Shown: positions 21,535-61,649, counted from the first letter of the whole stretch. The stretch is DNA of 63,383 nucleotides, filler included, from Neolecta irregularis DAH-3 (GCA_001929475.1; 20 parts of 20 records of this genome joined end to end with filler, not necessarily neighbours in it), one strand, 5' to 3'. Made by a program: numbers and translations. The notes: a model not told the origin generated them from the letters alone.

Positions 21535-21781
21535 NNNNNNNNNNNNNNNNNNNNNNNNNNNNNNNNNNNNNNNNNNNNTTAATTAATTAANNNNNNNNNN
21601 NNNNNNNNNNNNNNNNNNNNNNNNNNNNNNNNNNCTTATTTGTAACTTCTGGCGTTAAGCTTACATTTTTTTTACAAATACCGGCCAGCATTTCTGCGAG
21701 GGAAGCGGTCGATAAAAGAAGACTTCGGAAATTGCCACCCGAAGTAAGAAACGCATACAACAAAATTCCTCCTCATCTGGG

Positions 21782-22648
21782 ATGTCAGGAATAACAGATA
21801 TCAAACCGGAGACTTATACAGCGAGCAGTTCTCGTCCATTACCACTTTTTTCAGGAACTGGTGATTCAGTGCAGGCGGCTCGTGTATGGTTGAGTGTGGC
21901 GAAACGAATTATTCGCGCACGCCAAGGAAATGGGCACCGCTCTGTGCCAGCATTGCTAGAAGATCTAGCATGTGCATTGATAGACGATGCTTCTTTATGG
22001 TTCGACGAGATCGACGAGGAAATTACTACGTTAGAAGAATTTTTTGAAAAATTTTCTGAACAGTTTTTGAGTAACGCTGAACTTTCCATAGTACATGGAA
22101 AGTTTGACGTCTTGAAACAAAGCAACCGCTCTGTAGCAGAGTATGCAACAGAGTTTCGTACCCTATGGAAGCAGTTGGACCGGACTCACTACCCAGAGAT
22201 ACCAATGGCCCGAAAGTTTTGTCTTGGCTTGCGCCCAAACATCCAAATGACATTTACGGCAGCAATTTCCAGGATGACAAGCCTCAACAAAGCTATTGAT
22301 GCAGCATTAATCGGCGAGGCAGCCTTGGCTCAGAGAGCCCGAGAGTCTAAGCAGACAAGTAGTCATGGCGACCACCCTGATAAGTCGAAGCCGCTATCGA
22401 ATGACTGCTATAACTGTGGGGTAAAAGGACATTTTGCAAGGGACTGCTTGAAACCCCCTAAGAAAGGAATGGGATACCCGCTGCTTCCCCTTTTCGCGAA
22501 ATTCGAAGACACACAAAACTCGCCCCACAGAACTCCGCCCTATTCAACTGGTAGCATCCCCTGCGTGCGTCAAGTTGTGGTGTACATCGTGTATAAAAAT
22601 ACGCCGGGAGTGAATTATCGCGCGTATATATTCCATGACGTCATTTAA
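21782..22648 (+). mobile_element. Ty3/Gypsy-type Gag ORF with CCHC knuckle, no pol following
   Basis: LKQSNRSVAEYATEFRTL, KFCLGLRPNI, CYNCGVKGHFARDC; no protease/RT motif in any frame downstream. Confidence 0.85.
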
Positions 22649-40138: not shown

Positions 40139-41629
40139 AGGGATGAGGACGATGCCTGTATCAGTGAGATCTCTCGATTTTGCTTGTCGCCTCATATATA
40201 GTTGGTCAGCGATAACAACATATTTGTGAAGATATTTCTGGTATTTATTTTGATTCGAGAGGGATCCTGGACCGTGTATAATAGTCGGGTTTCGGAGAAA
40301 ATGGAAAATCTGAGATAGGAGTGGCTCGTAATCAGGATTCTCCTCTTCAATTAGGAAACCGGCTTCTGTTCTTTCTTCCTCTTCAATATCCGGCTCAGAA
40401 TTATTTGCAATTCTAGAGAAAAGATCAGCAAAGATATTATCCTTGCCAGGAATATTGTGGATTTCGAGATCAAAGTCCTGTAAGCGCATAATATATCGAG
40501 AATGTCGGGATGATAGCTCAGCTTTATTGAATAGGTAGGTTAGGGATTTATTATCACAATAAAGGTGGGTCTTTCTTCCAATTAGGTATCTTGAATATCG
40601 TCGTAAGCTATGGTCCACAGCAAGGAGTTCCTTGTCGAGGATAGTGTAATTAAGTTCTGACTTGTGCAGTTTTCTCGATATAAACGATATTGGTCGAGAA
40701 ATCCCATTTTGAATTTGGGTAAGAGCAGCTCCAATTGCATAGTCAGAGGCATCTGTGTAGAGGTGGTAGTCTGAATTTGTTTCGGGCCAAGCTAAAATTC
40801 TTGTTCCAAGTTCTCGGGCTTCATCCAGGAGATCTTGAAATTCCCGTATCATATCATTTGTAACGATAAATTTGCTGGTATTTGAAAGTGAATTGGTGAG
40901 ATGCAAGGTCTTACCAGCAAAATCGGGAATCTTGTCTCGATGGAAGCCAATCATGTGGATAAACGATCTCGCCTCTTTCTTTGTTCGTGGTGGGGATTGT
41001 AGAAGGATCTTATCGAGAAGTTTTTGAGCAGCGCGAATTCCTTCCTTATTGACCACATGCGCAAATACCTCATAATCCTTTTGAAGTAACTGGCATTTAT
41101 CTGGTCTGAGAATAATATTAGTATCTCGACACTTCTGTAGGAATGCTTTTATATATTGGAAATGTTGATCGATTCCATCTTCAAGTTTCGAATGAATCGT
41201 AATATCATCAAAATAGTTAGAGATATTAGCAAGTTGGTTCAGATGAATATGTGTAGCACGCGCCCATGTTGCTGGAGCATATTTTGGGCCAAACTGCATT
41301 ACATTTGTTCCGAAATGGCCCCAGGGGGTAGCCATAATAAGGACTTCCTTTGCGCGATTACTTGTTTGTATTTGTTGGAAGGCTTTAAGGGCATCAAATC
41401 CTGAAAACAAACTTGATCCTCGTAGTGACTCAAGAGTTTGTCGAATATCGGGGATAAAAAAATCATTTTTAGCAGTTCGTTTGTTAAGTTCACGTACATC
41501 CCATACAAGGCGATATTCATTTGTCCGAGCTTTCCGAACAACCCAAATAGGGAAACCCCATTTAACAGGACCGTGGATTTCAAACAAAAGTCCAGCATTG
41601 ACTTGTTTGGAAATTTCACCTTTGGCGAA
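40139..41629 (-). mobile_element. Ty3/Gypsy pol fragment: reverse transcriptase + RNase H, uninterrupted ORF
   Basis: YRLVWDVRELN, FDALKAFQQI, VMQFGPKYAPATW, YFDD, YTDASDYAIGAAL, ELNYTILDKELLAV, PGKDNIFADLFSR. Confidence 0.95.
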
Positions 41630-42353: not shown

Positions 42354-44551
42354 ATGGCAAGAGAACCACAACCAATGGATAGACACACACAATTGTCGAG
42401 CAGAAGAACGGAAGAACCTCGGACAGGTGATGACCTACAAAGATTAATGTAGCAAATACAGGCTGTAAGAATTACAGAAGAACAAACAAAACAGGATCCA
42501 CAAACAGAACAGGATCCACAAACCGAACAACAGAGAATAGTAATAGAACAACAGCAAGCAGCAACAGAACAGGAGTGAATGGAAACATGAGAACGGAGAT
42601 ACCAACAGGAAGACAATGAGCAAACACCATGCCCAGGGTCAGACAACTGGATAACAATGAGTATAGTGAGACAACAAGCAGCAAACCAGTATAGATTACC
42701 ACCACGACCAGCATCAGTAACACTATTGTCAGATACACCTACCTGACCACCAACCCAAGTAGAGTACTGAGAAATTCAACAACTGAGAACTATTTACCCA
42801 AGACTATCAGAACCGAAACACTTTACTTGGAAAGGAAATACCAACGTACTCAAGACTTGGCTGAGCGACTTAGACAATTACTTCATACTAGAAGGGTATG
42901 ACATAGATGATGGGGTAGACCTGTTGTTGGCAGGCTACCTACTAGATAGTGATGCCAAGGACTGGTGGAAAGCAAGGAAGAATTTGATTACATTGTGGAA
43001 GCAATTTCAACAAGAAATAATCAAAGAATTCATACTATCAACAGTGAAAGATACACCCTTAGATGAATGGAGATGACTTCACAAGAATTATCAGCATACA
43101 TTTCAGAATTAGGGAAATATCATCAACTACTACCCGAAATAAATGATTTTGCAGCAGAAACCAAGCTGTGGGAAGGGATGAACATGATAGTCAGAAGAAG
43201 AGCCAAGCCAATGGTACTGGATAATGCAACATTTTCTGAGACAGCAAGAATAGCAGAGAAGTTTGACTCAGCATACAGACTTGAAAGAAGTCAATCAATT
43301 AATAGACAATCAGATACAGGAAGAGCAACATACCAACAACCTATAGCAATGCCAATAACTAATCATTATCCACCATAACAGAGCCACCAAATACCAACAT
43401 GATTTCAAGCTCAGGCAAGATTAACACCAGATGAAAGGCAATGACTGCTTGATAATAATGGATGCCTACTCTGTAGGAAATTCAATGCAGGGCATTGGGC
43501 AGTCAATTGTCCAGACTGGAGAGTACCACAGAATCAAGTACAGCAACCTGGTAGGAATGGACCAGACAGCAGGAATAATCAACAGTTTCAACCAAATACG
43601 AACCACACAAAGACACCAGCCAATCAGAACAGATGAAGAGCAGAACTTTCCTATGCAGATGTTGCATAACAAGCACGGAAATTGAAAGCCATGAATGGAC
43701 CAGAGACAGTAATGGTTAACATATCACTTGGAGGATGAGAGGCATGATGTCTTATCGATACAGGTAGCACTGTCAACTTGTTAGACATGTCCTTTGCACA
43801 TTTGAATAACTTATATGCAAAACAGAGATCCTACAATGCTTAACTTCATAGTCAAGGGCAGCAAAGCGAAGACAACAGCCGAGATTGAGCTAGATATAGC
43901 TCACACAAAGCTACCAGGATGGGTATCCAAGCAGAAGTTCCTAATTGCTAACACAAACAATTATGATGCATTACTAGGTACACCATTTCTAGCTGATGAA
44001 AAAGCCATTGTCTCTATAAACCCCTGCAGTTGTCAGATTGCAGGGGAAGAGCTAGTCAACAAGTTAGTCCAGATTAACAAGAAGGATGGAAGCATACCAT
44101 CAGAAGTCCATACCATAGAACCAGATCAGATAGCGGATGAACAGTTTGTCAAAGAAACTAAAGCTTTCTTTGAGAAGTATTAACAGAATTTCAGAACATG
44201 GCTCAAACCTTCACCAAAATTTCCAGGATCGCATGAAATCATTCTTTTGGATACTAGTGAGAAGATCAACTCTCCAGTAGTGAAGTCACCAATTGCACAT
44301 CTACCATTCCTACAACAGTTTTTCAAGAGAGAAGTAAAGGAAGGATGTATGTGAGTATCGTCTTCACCTATAGCAGCATCAGCATTTTTCACAGCAAAGC
44401 CTAATACCGAGAGATTGGAACTCCAGAGTTCAGAATTCCAAAGATTAGATCCTGAGCAGAAGCTTGACAAGTTCCTAGAATATTACCACTGTGTTCATGA
44501 TTATAGAAAGCTAAATCTGAACATTTTACCAGACAGAACATCAACCCCACA
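42354..44551 (+). mobile_element. Degenerate Ty3/Gypsy gag-protease-RT (multiple stops/frameshifts)
   Basis: CLLCRKFNAGHWAVNC knuckle-like, LIDTGS protease, YDALLGTPFL, SSSPIAASAFF, HDYRKLN; truncated by hAT-like end at 44552. Confidence 0.85.
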
Positions 44552-52400: not shown

Positions 52401-52744
52401 GGGTGAGGATCCTCCCAAATTCTTCCAAAAAAAANNNNNNNNNNNNNNNNNNNNNNNNNNNNNNNNNNNNNNNNNNNNTTAATTAATTAANNNNNNNNNN
52501 NNNNNNNNNNNNNNNNNNNNNNNNNNNNNNNNNNCTTCCGCGCATGTGTTCCTGGGAATCGCACCAAATGCACCGGAGGGGTCTGTCCATAGCTGATCGA
52601 AAACTACCCGTGGCCGCTGGAACCTGAGGGACGACTATCTTGGCTTTCAGAAAAGCGATTTCTGCGCGGAGACATAATAACGTCGCCGTCCGCGTCATAC
52701 CGGACTGGAACGGGATTACTCGTCTTGTTGAGGANNNNNNNNNN

Positions 52745-53108
52745 CCTTCTTCTCATCATTGTTTTTGAACGCCGAACTCGAAGATTGCCGGGTCGACAAA
52801 ACTGGGCCGCTTTAGTCTGGACTGCATACTTTTCAATGTCTCTCATCTTGGTATATCCGTTCTTGCTGCGTCGAATAGCTGAAATCTCGATAGCTACGGG
52901 GTATATTTCGGGTGGTTGAGTATTCGATGGGGTTTACGGGATATCTCTCTGTTCACGAGGGTATATTCCTTGTAATAAACCTGACAGACTCGTAGTCTTT
53001 TGGTATGTCTTTGATGCGCTTCCTATGATTGCTGCCACTGCCGTATGGAGTGCTATTCCACCACATCGATATTTCGAGCGAATCGACCTGGACAAAGCTG
53101 AGAAATAA
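52745..53108 (+). CDS. RTA1-like (Rsb1/lipid-translocating exporter family) protein, C-terminal part
   Basis: SLIL|LRGIFRVVEYSMGFTGYLSVHE|VFWYVFDALPM. Confidence 0.85.
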
Positions 53109-54007: not shown

Positions 54008-55691
54008 CTAGCCCAAGTGTTGAGTAGTCTTTAATTCCGTTCTGAAGGCCTTACGGGCGGCAGGGGATAATCCAAGAATCGTCCCGACAGTGGTAGTAAA
54101 GGTGGTATTTTCCAACTCTTTAACTAGCTGCGGAATGATATCGATGTTTGCGATCGGGGCCGGCCGAACCGTCCATTTCTTGACCGGGGCTGTGTTAGTT
54201 TTACCGGGGAGGCCATGACGGGGACTTGCCACCCATATTTTTCCTGCGCGGCCGTATTCTAAAACATCCACGAGAGTTTCTTCAACGATTTCTTCTTCGT
54301 CCGCGATGGGGGCGAGCTGGATCATTGGGGATTGGAAAAGGGAGGCGAGAGAGGGGTGGTTTTTCTGTCCGCCACGTCCAAAGTTTAGCGGCACTACTTT
54401 ACCCTCTCGATTCACCAGCTTGCGATCCTCGTTGAGGCTGACCGTACCGTTCTTCATTACTTTCTGGAATTCTGCACATCTTCCGCGCATGTGTTCCTGG
54501 GAATCGCACCAAATGCACCGGAGGGGTCTGTCCATAGCTGATCGAGAACTACCCGTGGCCGCTGGAACCTGAGGGACGACTATCTTGGCTTTCAGAGAAG
54601 CGATTTCTGCGCGGAGAGACATAATAACGTCGCCGTCCGCGTCATACCGGACTGGAACGGGATTACTCGTCTTGTTGAGGATCGGGACTAGCTGGTTCCA
54701 TTCTATTTCCTTCTGTAAGACGATTTTTGCTATTTCAACAACTCTACGAAATTCGATTCGGCCGGCAGAGTCTTTGTGGGGCCGCGTAGCTTGCTGGATA
54801 GCTATTCGTTGGTTGTCCGGGAACGCTTCTAAGAACAGAATGTGCTGTTCATAGTGGGAGAGTGTATGCCTGACAATGAATTCTTCGCTAATGGTTTCGT
54901 AGAACTGTAAAAATTCGACCACGTCCCTGACTTCTTTGATCGAGTAGTTTTTAACTAACTGGATCAATTTCTCTTTAGTATACCCCAATCGTCCCTTTGT
55001 TTCGTATATAGCCACGAGTTCTTTTTCCATTGCGGGCCAAGTAATCTCGGCCGCAAACCCATGGACGTACTCCAATCGGGCCAAGACTTCAGGGGAGCAG
55101 AAGTCCATTAAATTTAAAACTTTGTCCTCGTCGTCCCATCCATTGCGCGCGGCTGCCCTATTCCAACGTTTGACGAAGATGTTGACGTCGTGTCCGCTAA
55201 ATCGGGGGATGAATGTGGAGCCTTTGGGAGCGGGTATGTCATGTTCTTGAGACATATTGATGACCGACGGTTCAAGTGAGACGGGAGATAGGCTTCCTGG
55301 AGGGCTGATGATCTGGAGTGGGTGGGGAAATTTCCCAGGGATAGGCAAGTAGTACTGAACCCGCTTGTCGTTGCCTATCCAAGCTATCTTGTATTCTACT
55401 AATGTCGGCATCATACTCGGCCTGTTTTTCCTCATATTGTTGTCGTTGTTGACTAGCGTTATTCCATTCTTGGTTCCACTGGGCTAGTAGTTCATTTCTT
55501 TCCCTTCTTTCTTGCCCGACATCGTTTCTGATTTGTTCATAACTGGGGGGTGTGCTGGGAATTCGCGTTGAGCCAATAGCTTCTTGTTCGTGTTGTCTGG
55601 CCGTATTATCATATCTTTCTTGAGTGGTCCTTCGATTTAGTTCTTGGGAGACCCTGGGACGTGTAGTGAAGTGTAGTGGCGATAACGCCAT
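54008..55691 (-). mobile_element. LTR-retrotransposon Gag-like ORF (CCHC knuckle, DUF4100-like end) preceded by a coiled-coil ORF; truncated before pol
   Basis: IPRFSGHDVNIFVKRW, CIWCDSQEHMRGRC, TTVGTILGLSPAARK; near-identical second copy fragment at 52535-52734. Confidence 0.8.
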
Positions 55692-55786: not shown

Positions 55787-56610
55787 CTAATCCTCCAGCA
55801 GGGTACTAGTTGTGGCGATGATGTCAACATCCGCCAAGCTACCGACTCTGAGTGTTCTCAATATGTTGGATCCGAATAACTCCGATTTCTCTTGATTTCG
55901 ATATACGCTAGAGACCACAGTTTTCATGAGATCCTTGATTAAGAACTGGTTATTCATTATTTTGGATTGTTGAATATCAGATAGTACAGAAGGGGATTGC
56001 AAATATATCAGGGAGAGCACTGTTTGGGAGACACCCGATTCTTGGTAAGGAGCATAAAACAAGGGAGTGCTATGAATTGGTGGAACTGAAAACTGGGCTT
56101 TGTGGCCAAAACGTTTCATTGCTTTTTCAAAAATATCCAAGACAAGTGAGAGGCAACCTTCGTCATACGTAGTTGAGTAACTAATGATTATGTCAAGAGG
56201 GATCTTTTTATTTCCGTTATCGATAAGTCAAGGATAAGCCCGGATTGATCAAATCGTGCTACAACAATCGTAGAGTCAAGCGAAACGACGAGNNNNNNNN
56301 NNCCCAGACTGGTCAAGGATAAGCCCGGATTGATCAAATCGTGCTACAACAATCGTAGAGTCAAGCGAAACGACGAGCATGTGGATATTAGCTCCTTCGA
56401 TGAAAAGCGTCCCTTTCACGGGATCGAAAATAGTGGTTCTACCTTCTCCCTGGCTGATTATATCAAGAAAAGTCAACACAAGACTATTAAATGGTTGTGA
56501 AGAAACATTTTCTGTAATTCTCCGCCTCTTAGCTGACGGTTGAACACCCCGAGTAATCTTTTGGTTGGATGAAATCCAATGGTCTGAAGACTTCCTTCGA
56601 GAGGCTGCAA
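55787..56610 (-). CDS. C-terminal part of paralog of the 59290-60631 family (NLS-like PSAKRRRI + conserved domain)
   Basis: LTFLDII/LTFLQIL, IHMLV/LHLLV, IFEKAMKRFGH/IFLELMTHLGH, KDLMKTVV..Y/RDLMAIVV..Y blocks in the same order. Confidence 0.7.
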
Positions 56611-59289: not shown

Positions 59290-60631
59290 GAACGTTATTT
59301 GCACTGCATCTTTTCTCGACGATCATTTCGAGAAGTCTAATGATGTTTTCGGCAATTGTGCATTTGATGAAGTTCCAGTAGACTCATGGTTGCGGTACGG
59401 CAGCATAAGTCAAGATCATGTAACATACAAATGTGCAAAGGAATGCTACAATAATCGGTATATTTGTAAGTCCTTCCTCATATTGGAGAGAGTGAACCTC
59501 GAACTTCTGACCTCGGGGAGGGGATTCGAATGTCTGAAATTTGGCATCTCTTCATCAGAGATTGTTACGAAACCACACAGTTCATTCCGTACTTGTTGGG
59601 TGCGAGCTGGGTACAAGTAAGCACCTGCGATTGAATGGAAAATCTCATATTCAAGTATTCTTGAACAACAAACATTTTCTCTCAAAGATATTTCTCGCGA
59701 TATGAAAAATAAACCAGGAGAAGAGTGGGCGAAGGATATTTTAAAAAAATATGGGGGATCTATAGTATTCACTCCGGTCGCCACTGAAGCAGTCTACCTG
59801 CCTCTTTTACTCTTGTGCAGGAACATTGCGATGCATGCCACCCAACCAATATCAATAAATTTTGCGAATAATATTCTTTTCAATGGTCAAGAAAAGGGAC
59901 GCAACGAAAGTGGAGAGTCGATGACCAAACGCGCCAAAATAGATCATGAAGCCGGAGAAAAGACGTCTACTCAAATGATTAACACGGACCTAGATTCATG
60001 GACAGTTCCTACGAAAAGGTTCTCATCACCAGAGTGCTTTCAAGCTATGGCGTTGACTTTTCTACAAATACTCAGCGGGAATATTCGTGGAGGAATTCCC
60101 ACTCATTTTAATGAGAAAGATCGGTATTTAATTTTTGAAGAAAAAGATCTGCACCTACTCGTTGGTTTCGCTCGCCTTGGAGAGTATATTATAATATGGG
60201 GCCCTCCAGCTGAAAATAACGCCGATGCAACTGAAGCACACCTATATGAAGCCTTTGAACACGACGGCTTCAACTTACAACAATCTATTGAGAAGTATTC
60301 TATAATCTTTTTAGAATTAATGACTCATCTCGGTCACACATATAATATTGATAGAAATAGCGAGTTTTTCGGAGAGCGTGAAGTGGAAATGTTGATGACA
60401 GAAGTTGTTCTAAAGGTGGCAGACATATTACTTAGCCCTCTTCAAGCTCACGATGCAACATTTGGGGAAACGATAACACCTACACCATTCTTTCGCGATC
60501 TCATGGCAATCGTGGTCATTAACGACTATGGGAAGAACCTGAGATCCAGTTTAGTTCAATCTCTACTAAGCAACAGCCGATCACGACCACATTTCCGTGA
60601 TACAATCATTACAACAAACAATAATACTTGA
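59290..60631 (+). CDS. Uncharacterised modular protein: PAN/apple-like Cys domain + NLS-like motif + family-specific C-terminal domain (5' end at contig edge)
   Basis: Exon 1 KCAKECYNNRYICKSF..FECLKF..TCW; 39-nt intron 59617-59655 (GTAAGC..CTCAT..AAG) splices in frame into the 309-aa ORF; MTKRAKI at 59921-59941. Confidence 0.75.
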
Positions 60632-61019
60632 GAATATATTACAGGAGCCTTGCCGACAAGGATTGCAGGCATCTGTTCTCTGTCTTGTTAGATAGCCAAT
60701 TGTTTAGCAGTTTGTGTACTTGATCTAATCCGTGTTAACGGTATCTTTTGTATATTACTATTGATTAGCTTTGGAATTCAAGGCTACTTGCATTGTGTAG
60801 ATGGCTCAGCTGGTGGTAGTGAGGTAGTGGTGAGTTGCATAGGTGGTCGCGGTCACAGATTTGGTGGTGAAGTTGGGCGATTCCACAGGTGGGACGATTC
60901 CACAGATGGGACAGAATACNNNNNNNNNNNNNNNNNNNNNNNNNNNNNNNNNNNNNNNNNNNNTTAATTAATTAANNNNNNNNNNNNNNNNNNNNNNNNN
61001 NNNNNNNNNNNNNNNNNNN

Positions 61020-61168
61020 GCTGCTCTACATCCTCGTCCTGCTGCTCTACATCCTCGTCCTGCTACTCTACATCCTCGTCCTGCTACTCTACATCCTCGT
61101 CCTGATACTCTACATCCTCGTCCTGCTACTCTACATCCTCGTCCTGCTGCTCTACATCCTCGTCCTGC
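61020..61168. repeat. 21-bp minisatellite CTGCTACTCTACATCCTCGTC, 7 copies
   Basis: Direct inspection. Confidence 0.92.
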
Positions 61169-61649
61169 TTGCCCTGGCCGTCTCCAGTCCATCTCAGTCC
61201 GTCTCAGTGTCCCCGCCATGGCTGTCCTGCATGTCTCCTGCTCCCGCCCGCTGCTGCCGGCCCTGTCCCATGACTCGGGCGTCTCTGTTGGCCCCTGCTG
61301 ACTCCCGACGCCTCTCCTGCGTCGCTGTACTCTGCCTCGCTACCCTCACTACTGTCACTGCCCTCACACCCTCACTACTGTCACTGCCCTCACACTCTGT
61401 CGCACTCCCCTCCCCCTCTCTCACAGTGCCTGCCTTCCTCCCTCCACATCCTCCTGCCTGGCTTGCCTCCGGTCCTGCCGCCTTTCTCGGTCAACCCACA
61501 GGCCATCGCAACAAATGCGCCCACATCCGGGATAATCTGTGCCTGGCCTATAGCTAGTCCACAACACTATTAATATAACATATAAACAACATTAATATAG
61601 AATAAGATGGGCTTTTTTTTGGACCCGCCATGGCCCATCCCCAACACTG

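Follow-up and report, generated by a model that had tools for sequence, protein, structure and literature searches.

A candidate two-exon gene of an apparently unrecognised, modular and fast-diverging family in Neolecta irregularis DAH-3

Introduction

PAN/apple domains are built on a framework of four to six cysteines, with a CxxxC pair in a helix, then a C-x2-aromatic motif and later a C-x-L-K motif; in their fold a helix packs on an antiparallel sheet, and disulfides hold the two. Another modular group, the Crinkler (CRN) proteins, carries an N-terminal header with an LFLAK/DWL/HVLVxxP region, and Pfam has a Crinkler family. Among the Taphrinomycotina, the MSG proteins of Pneumocystis form a lineage-specific secreted multigene family. 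Here we describe a candidate gene at 59290-60631 of a 63383-nucleotide (nt) stretch of DNA, called the window throughout, from the earth-tongue ascomycete Neolecta irregularis DAH-3 of the Taphrinomycotina (GCA_001929475.1), and compare it with these systems. Lineage-specific modular effector (CSEP) superfamilies are also described for Taphrina in PMC7036362.

The exon-1 piece of the candidate gene is like PAN/apple proteins (PF00024, PF14295) in showing their cysteine spacing within a module that follows a leader and is some 80 residues long, and its nearest language-model clusters are PAN-domain clusters; it is unlike them in having no Pfam or PDB sequence match, and its first cysteine (C23) is conserved neither in the paralog nor in another copy. 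With the Crinklers the family shares a modular concept (leader, conserved N-terminal part, variable C-terminal domain and basic motif) and a multi-copy state. However, Pfam links the product neither with the N-terminal family of the Crinklers nor with a CRN C-domain of any kind, its N-terminal part is cysteine-rich and PAN-like whereas the CRN header is of a different kind, and its basic motif does not look conserved. The likeness to Crinklers drawn in the initial annotation finds no support in Pfam, where the whole product shows no match to the N-terminal header at E up to 10. Like the Taphrina CSEP superfamilies (PMC7036362) and Pneumocystis MSG, the family is limited to a single lineage, is multi-copy, bears cysteines and has a modular or mosaic build in which conserved parts stand beside highly variable ones. 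It differs from both in that no sequence similarity was detected outside its own lineage, and its product is bigger than the small Taphrina CSEPs.

Taken as a whole, the observation looks largely real, that is, a two-exon gene belonging to an unrecognised, modular and fast-diverging family. The explanation that we prefer, and hold with about even confidence, is a lineage-specific, multi-copy and rapidly diversifying family of secretory-pathway proteins that join a PAN-like module to a novel C-terminal domain.

Gene structure and coding potential

The regions 59291-59620 and 59621-60631 form a single frame that is broken only by a TAA at 59618-59620 and ends with a TGA at 60629-60631. As had been proposed, and as the sequence read directly bears out, a 39-nt GT..AG stretch joins a Cys-rich exon in frame to the downstream open reading frame (ORF). 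This candidate intron removes the sole in-frame stop, and without the TAA segment the ORF has 445 codons free of stops. Exon 1 encodes the end of a leader (..VICTAS), which is probably the end of a signal peptide, followed by a cysteine-bearing domain of about 100 amino acids (aa).

Reference introns came from the N. irregularis DAH-3 NCBI protein P0001 ("Cbf5, partial", 1338 aa), which was mapped back on 2883-7241 (-), locating 18 annotated introns. Their lengths are 38, 34, 35, 37, 39, 36, 42, 35, 40, 44, 41, 35, 45, 79, 38, 37, 37 and 34 nt; 17 of the 18 thus lie between 34 and 45 nt, with the 79-nt intron as the exception, which makes the proposed short intron credible. A GTA start occurs in 16 of the 18, and the 3' ends are TAG in 12, CAG in 5 and AAG in 1, although boundaries were restricted to GT/GC..AG in this mapping, so that the dinucleotides themselves follow from the method. 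The Cbf5 part of P0001 is 84% identical (342/406) to the Saitoella protein P0003, and four P0001 junctions (introns of 38, 37, 37 and 34 nt) are gapless against it. The sole gap in that alignment is a 5-residue insertion in P0001, which adjoins the only long (79-nt) intron.

In its modal length and common 5' end, the candidate intron is typical for the genome. Contigs of DNA runs offer two more hints: 59646 C>G, present in 7 of 7 variant contigs, adds a second in-frame stop (TGA) inside the candidate intron, and two contig joints in the DNA runs restart exactly at 59656, the first base of exon 2. A ciliate-type code in which TAA specifies an amino acid was considered and set aside, since this is a fungal genome and the stop is explained by the intron.

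Codon statistics agree with the proposed frame. The exon 2 region holds a 336-codon open frame in DNA of 41% G+C, and a hand estimate from base composition puts the chance of such a frame at about 3e-10 per start. With codon frequencies taken from 1211 codons of the Sec15/Cbf5 exons of P0001, the proposed frame is the best of six in all five family pieces of the window, with 0.06-0.15 bits per codon, the other frames lying between 0.01 and -0.51. Exon 1 scores 0.061 (other frames, -0.19 to -0.34) and exon 2 scores 0.077 (other frames, -0.24 to -0.46); for comparison, a conserved DUF4210 gene in the window reaches -0.008 and a reverse transcriptase (RT) 0.164 bits per codon. The features of the gene and of its paralogs are collected in Table 1.

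Table 1. Features of the candidate gene, its flank and its diverged paralogs (positions in the window)
Feature	Position	Strand	Remarks
Exon 1, partial	59291..59616	+	open frame; 5' end cut by scaffold start
PAN/apple-like cysteine region	59357..59596	+	C23, C48-x3-C52-x6-C59-x2-F62, C81-L-K, C102
Candidate in-frame intron, 39 nt	59617..59655	+	GTAAGC...CTCATATTCAAG (CTCAT..AAG; end TTCAAG)
Exon 2 with TGA stop	59656..60631	+	linker and novel C-terminal domain; 324 codons from 59657
KRAK basic motif, within MTKRAKI	59927..59938	+	in hydrophilic linker; nuclear localisation signal (NLS)-like or dibasic processing site
Block similar to paralog	60023..60163	+	SPECFQAMALTFLQIL...LIFEEKDLHLLV; aligns to 56303-56608 (-)
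3' flank	60632..60919	+	60632-60774 common to other copies; 60775-60919 very high-copy repeat
N-terminal paralog piece	2568..2780	+	MMFPMIICLITLCTLTCAAASLDDF...SN...CARQC-x6-C (SLDDF..SN); cut by scaffold end
C-terminal paralog piece	55787..56610	-	carries PSAKRRRI; frame-shifted near 56227

The N-terminal PAN-like module

The exon-1 piece has cysteines at residues 4, 23, 48, 52, 59, 81 and 102, and the motifs CAKEC-x6-CKSF, ECLKF and TCW can all be read in it. This spacing agrees with the PAN/apple framework given above, and within the window the pattern occurs in only one real ORF. In the Atlas, which compares proteins by language-model features, the nearest neighbours of the 108-aa piece are PAN_1/PAN_4 clusters, with a score of 0.92. 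Recognition stands at 2881, above the mark of 2300, and the ten best named matches fall 10/10 in one clan, an agreement that is also reached by a third of shuffled proteins. A low-confidence AlphaFold model places one helix over the CxxxC, followed by strands. The first cysteine is less constant than the others, since C23 pairs with a non-Cys residue in the N-terminal paralog and is lost in another copy, where 59357 T>G occurs with 59358 G>A.

The PAN/apple assignment made in the initial annotation thus survives in part: cysteine spacing and, as a lead only, language-model neighbours speak for it, but no Pfam match appears even at E up to 10. The module is probably PAN-like.

Diverged paralogs within the window

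Two further pieces of the family lie on other scaffolds. The piece at 2568-2780 is homologous to the exon-1 piece, as had been claimed: BLASTP gives E 6e-4 with 28% identity over 60 aa, and a local alignment scores 53 where shuffles give 24.7 ± 4.9 (z 5.8, equalled by 0/500). Their alignment has 17 invariant columns, three cysteines (C48, C52, C59) among them. The leader of this paralog contains a hydrophobic 15-mer, MIICLITLCTLTCAA, with a mean Kyte-Doolittle value of 2.39, followed by AAA-S. Secretory signal peptides have an N-terminal hydrophobic core with small residues after it at -3 and -1. A candidate for the signal peptide that the initial annotation assigned to the family is visible in this paralog only, where an in-frame ATG at 2439 also lies upstream of the leader.

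The C-terminal paralog is best supported in its first part. Against 56303-56608 (-), the C-terminal piece of the candidate gene scores 54, compared with 29.0 ± 4.5 for shuffles (z 5.5, 0/500), and the matching block at 60023-60163 shows 35% identity over 46 aa by tblastn. A semi-global alignment to the whole 55787-56610 paralog, with an X at the break, scores 74 against 28.5 ± 8.6 (z 5.3, 0/1000). Taken by itself, the second half reaches no significance against 55790-56227, with z 1.6 (37/500), z 1.5 (80/1000) and BLASTP E 2.7; it is colinear, and its end is equally far from the stop. Of the four colinear conserved blocks originally described, therefore, the first block and the whole hold up, while the later blocks taken alone do not.

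The reading frame of this paralog shifts after ..GLILD and before NGNKK.., a place that lacks the GT an intron would need. The break falls at a 10-N gap, on both sides of which 66 identical bases (56227-56292 and 56312-56377) are followed by divergence. The 66-nt repeat is a scaffolding overlap, possibly one that joins two different copies of the family, and the broken paralog is either a pseudogene or an assembler chimera of two copies.

The pieces are mutual best non-self tblastn matches within the window. A hidden Markov model (HMM) of the two N-terminal pieces found no third member among 1542 window ORFs. By tblastn, the C-terminal piece also matched 43941-44072 (E 0.43), which was taken as chance; the scaffold there carries retroelement-like ORFs with a CCHC motif.

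Copy number and variation among close copies

Contigs of two DNA runs, X1 and X2 (the latter under a second organism label), were placed on the 1630 nt of the scaffold at 85% identity or more. Run X1 contributed 202 contigs (55, 53, 65 and 29 in the identity bands 99+, 95-99, 90-95 and under 90), part of which belong to the very high-copy 3' end, and run X2 contributed 64. Up to 7 distinct variant contigs each cover ORF positions 59642 and 60518. Exact contigs have a depth of 236-447, and the conserved bins sum to 750-5450. In the flank, the depth summed over contigs stands at 1774-4847 as far as 60774 and rises to 13454-103509 at 60775-60919, which includes a 17-nt tandem unit at 60874-60912. 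With several more copies in the DNA-run contigs and no relatives in the libraries searched, the initial view of a multi-copy, fast-diverging and unrecognised modular family is sustained.

The copies do not vary evenly. The family looks as though two blocks of high variability interrupt an otherwise conserved framework, because 59400-59509 (inside the PAN-like core) and 60225-60389 (the middle of the C-domain) are covered by the exact contig only and because the joints of contigs jump over 207, 292, 278 and 368 nt at these blocks. Indels within the ORF are limited to one 3-nt deletion and one net-zero cluster, and those of the 3' flank are of 1-2 nt. Among 40 listed of the 115 differences between close copies, 28 fall in the ORF, and 24 of these are non-synonymous, compared with 21.9 expected if neutral (P 0.23).

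As a separate observation, 17 of the 28 listed ORF differences fall at codon position 2, where 8.9 would be expected (P 0.001); because only 40 of the 115 differences are listed, this excess is given little weight.

Linker, basic motif and C-terminal domain

KRAK is the sole match in the predicted product to K[KR]x[KR], the pattern that defines a classical monopartite NLS when conserved in an exposed segment. At 59931, G>A changes KRAK to KHAK in 2 contigs of each run, and the KHAK contigs account for 714/1023 of the depth at the site in X1 and 60.5/63.9 in X2. One contig also has four small indels at 59918-59935, around the motif. Because KHAK contigs carry most of the depth there in both runs, the basic motif appears to be a feature of the 59291-60631 copy and no family trait. 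The c-Myc-type NLS claimed at the outset is accordingly present as a motif, MTKRAKI, but other copies read KHAK and their linker carries indels. Fungal secretory proproteins can be cut by Kex2-type processing at a dibasic KR within a linker, and the KR here could equally be such a site.

Exon 2 encodes a hydrophobic stretch, IVFTPVATEAVYLPLLLLC, at 59759-59815, with a 19-residue mean Kyte-Doolittle value of 1.87 and an Arg directly after it. It includes one Glu and two Pro, and 59763 T>C changes an Ile within it to Thr in 3 other contigs. The AlphaFold model of the C-terminal piece (mean predicted local distance difference test score, pLDDT, 38.6) was too poor for a fold search; at this low confidence it renders IVFTPVATEAVYLPLLLLC as a strand and a helix of a small domain.

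In the Atlas, the C-terminal piece had a recognition of 1171, with helical-repeat-like neighbours from unrelated families. These neighbours were set aside as noise, only 1/10 of the best named matches lying in the family or clan of the best match. A PD-(D/E)xK nuclease reading of an FEEKD motif was also dropped, because the paralog lacks the Lys.

Searches for relatives

Pfam, searched at E up to 1 and 10, returned no family for the pieces or for the read-through product, and neither PHROGs nor NCBIfam gave a match. The best matches among PDB sequences had E 0.9-1.9 and were unrelated. A word-indexed search of 5.8 billion clusters listed 776 candidates for the C-terminal piece and 3 for the N-terminal region, none of them scored. 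A phmmer search of 1.84 billion protein representatives at E up to 0.001 returned 0 matches, not even the ORF itself, and two scans of metagenome contigs together with a scan of viral contigs yielded no relatives. Since the phmmer library lacks the ORF though other N. irregularis proteins are in it, annotation seems to have missed this gene together with its close copies. Literature searches on Neolecta found no description of the family, and the main text of PMC5309816 does not mention it.

Genomic context

The N. irregularis genome measures 14.5 Mb, with 44% GC and an N50 of 16 kb, and the DNA and RNA sequenced came from fruiting bodies, according to PMC5309816. The 63383 bases of the window comprise 27 ACGT stretches, in which scaffolds are separated by 100-nt spacers (N with TTAATTAATTAA) and gaps within a scaffold are written as 10 N. 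The candidate gene occupies a separate 1630-nt scaffold, 59290-60919.

Ordinary fungal genes occur on other scaffolds, one of them a DUF4210/Chromosome_seg gene at 694-1518; the N-terminal paralog lies some 1 kb downstream of that gene. The Cbf5 fragment found at 3548-4090 (-) matches P0001 with 100% identity. That protein, which spans 2883-7809 (-), combines Sec15 domains (EXOC6_Sec15_N, Sec15_C) with Cbf5 domains (DKCLD, TruB_N, TruB_C_2, PUA) and probably represents two adjacent genes that the annotator merged over introns of very small size.

Pieces of Ty3-type retroelements also occur, with a gag at 21716-22645 and an RT-RNase H region at 40139-41629. A 491-aa ORF at 54008-55483 (-) has a CX2CX4HX4C zinc knuckle and no Pfam gag match, and near-identical fragments of it (97-99%) are found on the same scaffold at 52535-52734 and 52745-52933. 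This ORF is likely a diverged retroelement gag, with no pol adjoining it. The C-terminal paralog lies about 300 nt upstream of this gag-like CCHC ORF. Elsewhere, the scaffold end at 61020-61169 consists of a 21-nt unit repeated 7.1 times and is open in several frames.

The preferred explanation and its rivals

If the gene belongs to a secretory-pathway family, its two-exon transcript would have the typical 39-nt intron spliced out, and a hydrophobic leader like that of the N-terminal paralog would direct the product to the secretory pathway. The product would then have a disulfide-bonded PAN/apple-like module, next a linker, hydrophilic and variable, and finally a roughly 200-aa C-terminal domain without detectable relatives. 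Such a protein may serve in extracellular or cell-surface binding or recognition, with the PAN-like module as its binding surface, and the copies would diversify as cassette-like blocks between conserved framework segments.

Several points weigh against this explanation. The gene appears to be absent from the annotation, and no full-length copy was seen. The Pfam PAN models (PF00024, PF14295, PF08276) do not match the 108-aa piece, its 71-aa core or the read-through product at E up to 10, and the AlphaFold model from the two-sequence N-terminal alignment (mean pLDDT 34.1) was too poor for a fold search. The leader of the 2568 paralog could be an internal signal anchor if the ATG at 2439 is used, and the AAG 3' end of the candidate intron belongs to the rarest class (1/18 P0001 introns). 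One of the window paralogs is frame-shifted and stands beside a gag-like ORF, and the repeated 3' flank also fits a mobile or segmentally duplicated unit. Finally, the differences listed between close copies give no sign of purifying selection, a point to which little weight is given.

Conceivably, the frame belongs to a repeated or selfish element of an uncharacterised kind (be it mobile, a segmentally duplicated repeat unit or a killer/driver-type gene), whose copy number would reflect replication of the unit itself and no host function. Several copies are 85-99% identical with intron and 3' flank included, the scaffold ends in the very high-copy repeat, a diverged copy lies 300 nt upstream of the repeated gag-like ORF, the gene is not annotated and the substitution pattern looks neutral. 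Yet no similarity to transposase, RT, integrase or gag was detected in Pfam, PHROGs, NCBIfam or the 1.84 billion representatives, and the 59290-60919 scaffold has no terminal direct or inverted repeats. Moreover, another member of the family sits beside an ordinary conserved gene, the predicted intron is spliceosomal and the codon usage host-like, and zero relatives outside the lineage would be unusual for the proteins of an element. We regard such an origin as unlikely, though a serious candidate. Decaying pseudogenes or other non-functional duplicates are a related concern, with the present copy open by chance bar one stop and the "intron" a coincidence. This would suit the in-frame TAA, the frame-shifted paralog, the lack of annotation and the 24 of 28 non-synonymous changes among the differences listed, as expected without constraint. 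What makes decay distinctly unlikely is that the stop falls exactly inside a GT..AG stretch of modal intron length, that the remaining 445 codons are stop-free with frame-specific codon usage, and that the ORF indels preserve the frame.

Other alternatives accept a functional protein and place it elsewhere. A single-pass membrane receptor, with a PAN-like ectodomain, a span at IVFTPVATEAVYLPLLLLC and a cytoplasmic C-terminal domain, would be in keeping with the 19-residue hydrophobic window and the Arg that follows. The Glu and the two Pro in this stretch argue otherwise, as do the Ile to Thr change in 3 other contigs and the low-confidence AlphaFold model that folds it into a small domain; by our hand sum on the biological hydrophobicity scale, its insertion energy is also what we take to be clearly unfavourable. 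A receptor of this kind is very unlikely. The initial annotation had favoured a host-translocated nuclear effector, in which the protein would be secreted, taken up by a host and imported into its nucleus through KRAK/KRRR, where the C-terminal domain would act. A K[KR]x[KR] motif does occur in the hydrophilic linker of two diverged members, the N-terminal paralog has a leader peptide, the family is multi-copy and fast-diverging, and the related Taphrina have lineage-specific modular effector superfamilies (PMC7036362). This mechanism is nevertheless unsupported, because KRAK reads KHAK in other copies, and these close copies carry most of the depth in both runs. A four-residue motif of this kind is also frequent by chance, and at E up to 10 Pfam assigns the whole product to neither Crinkler nor any other effector family. 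There is no evidence of a host, and we know of none for N. irregularis. Neolecta is, in addition, termed saprophytic in a passing remark in PMC7036362. Of all the explanations weighed here, the nuclear effector is the least probable by our estimate.

A more specific form of the preferred secretory family would be a cassette-type diversity system, in which ten or more copies share a framework and exchange, or independently diversify, two hypervariable blocks, which would equip a free-living fungus of the Taphrinomycotina with a repertoire of recognition proteins, either secreted or on the surface. Four segments would make up the framework (the end of the leader, the junction of the exons, the first block of the C-terminal part and the 3' end), and the hypervariable blocks would correspond to the PAN-like binding core and to the central part of the C-terminal domain. 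The excess of differences at the second codon position would then be a trace of selection for amino-acid change, and the repertoire would be functionally akin to antigenic-variation and allorecognition families. We consider this a long shot.

Significance

As it stands, an orphan family of this kind is a useful lead and one that would not surprise specialists. It also illustrates that genes skipped by standard annotation can hide on short, repeat-bounded scaffolds. If real and expressed, the family would be an unannotated, lineage-restricted one with a novel C-terminal domain, in a very compact genome that has been studied for the origin of fungal multicellularity. The ecology of the fungus is poorly known, and a secreted family that diversifies would be a hint that biotic interactions, or self/non-self recognition, play a part in it.

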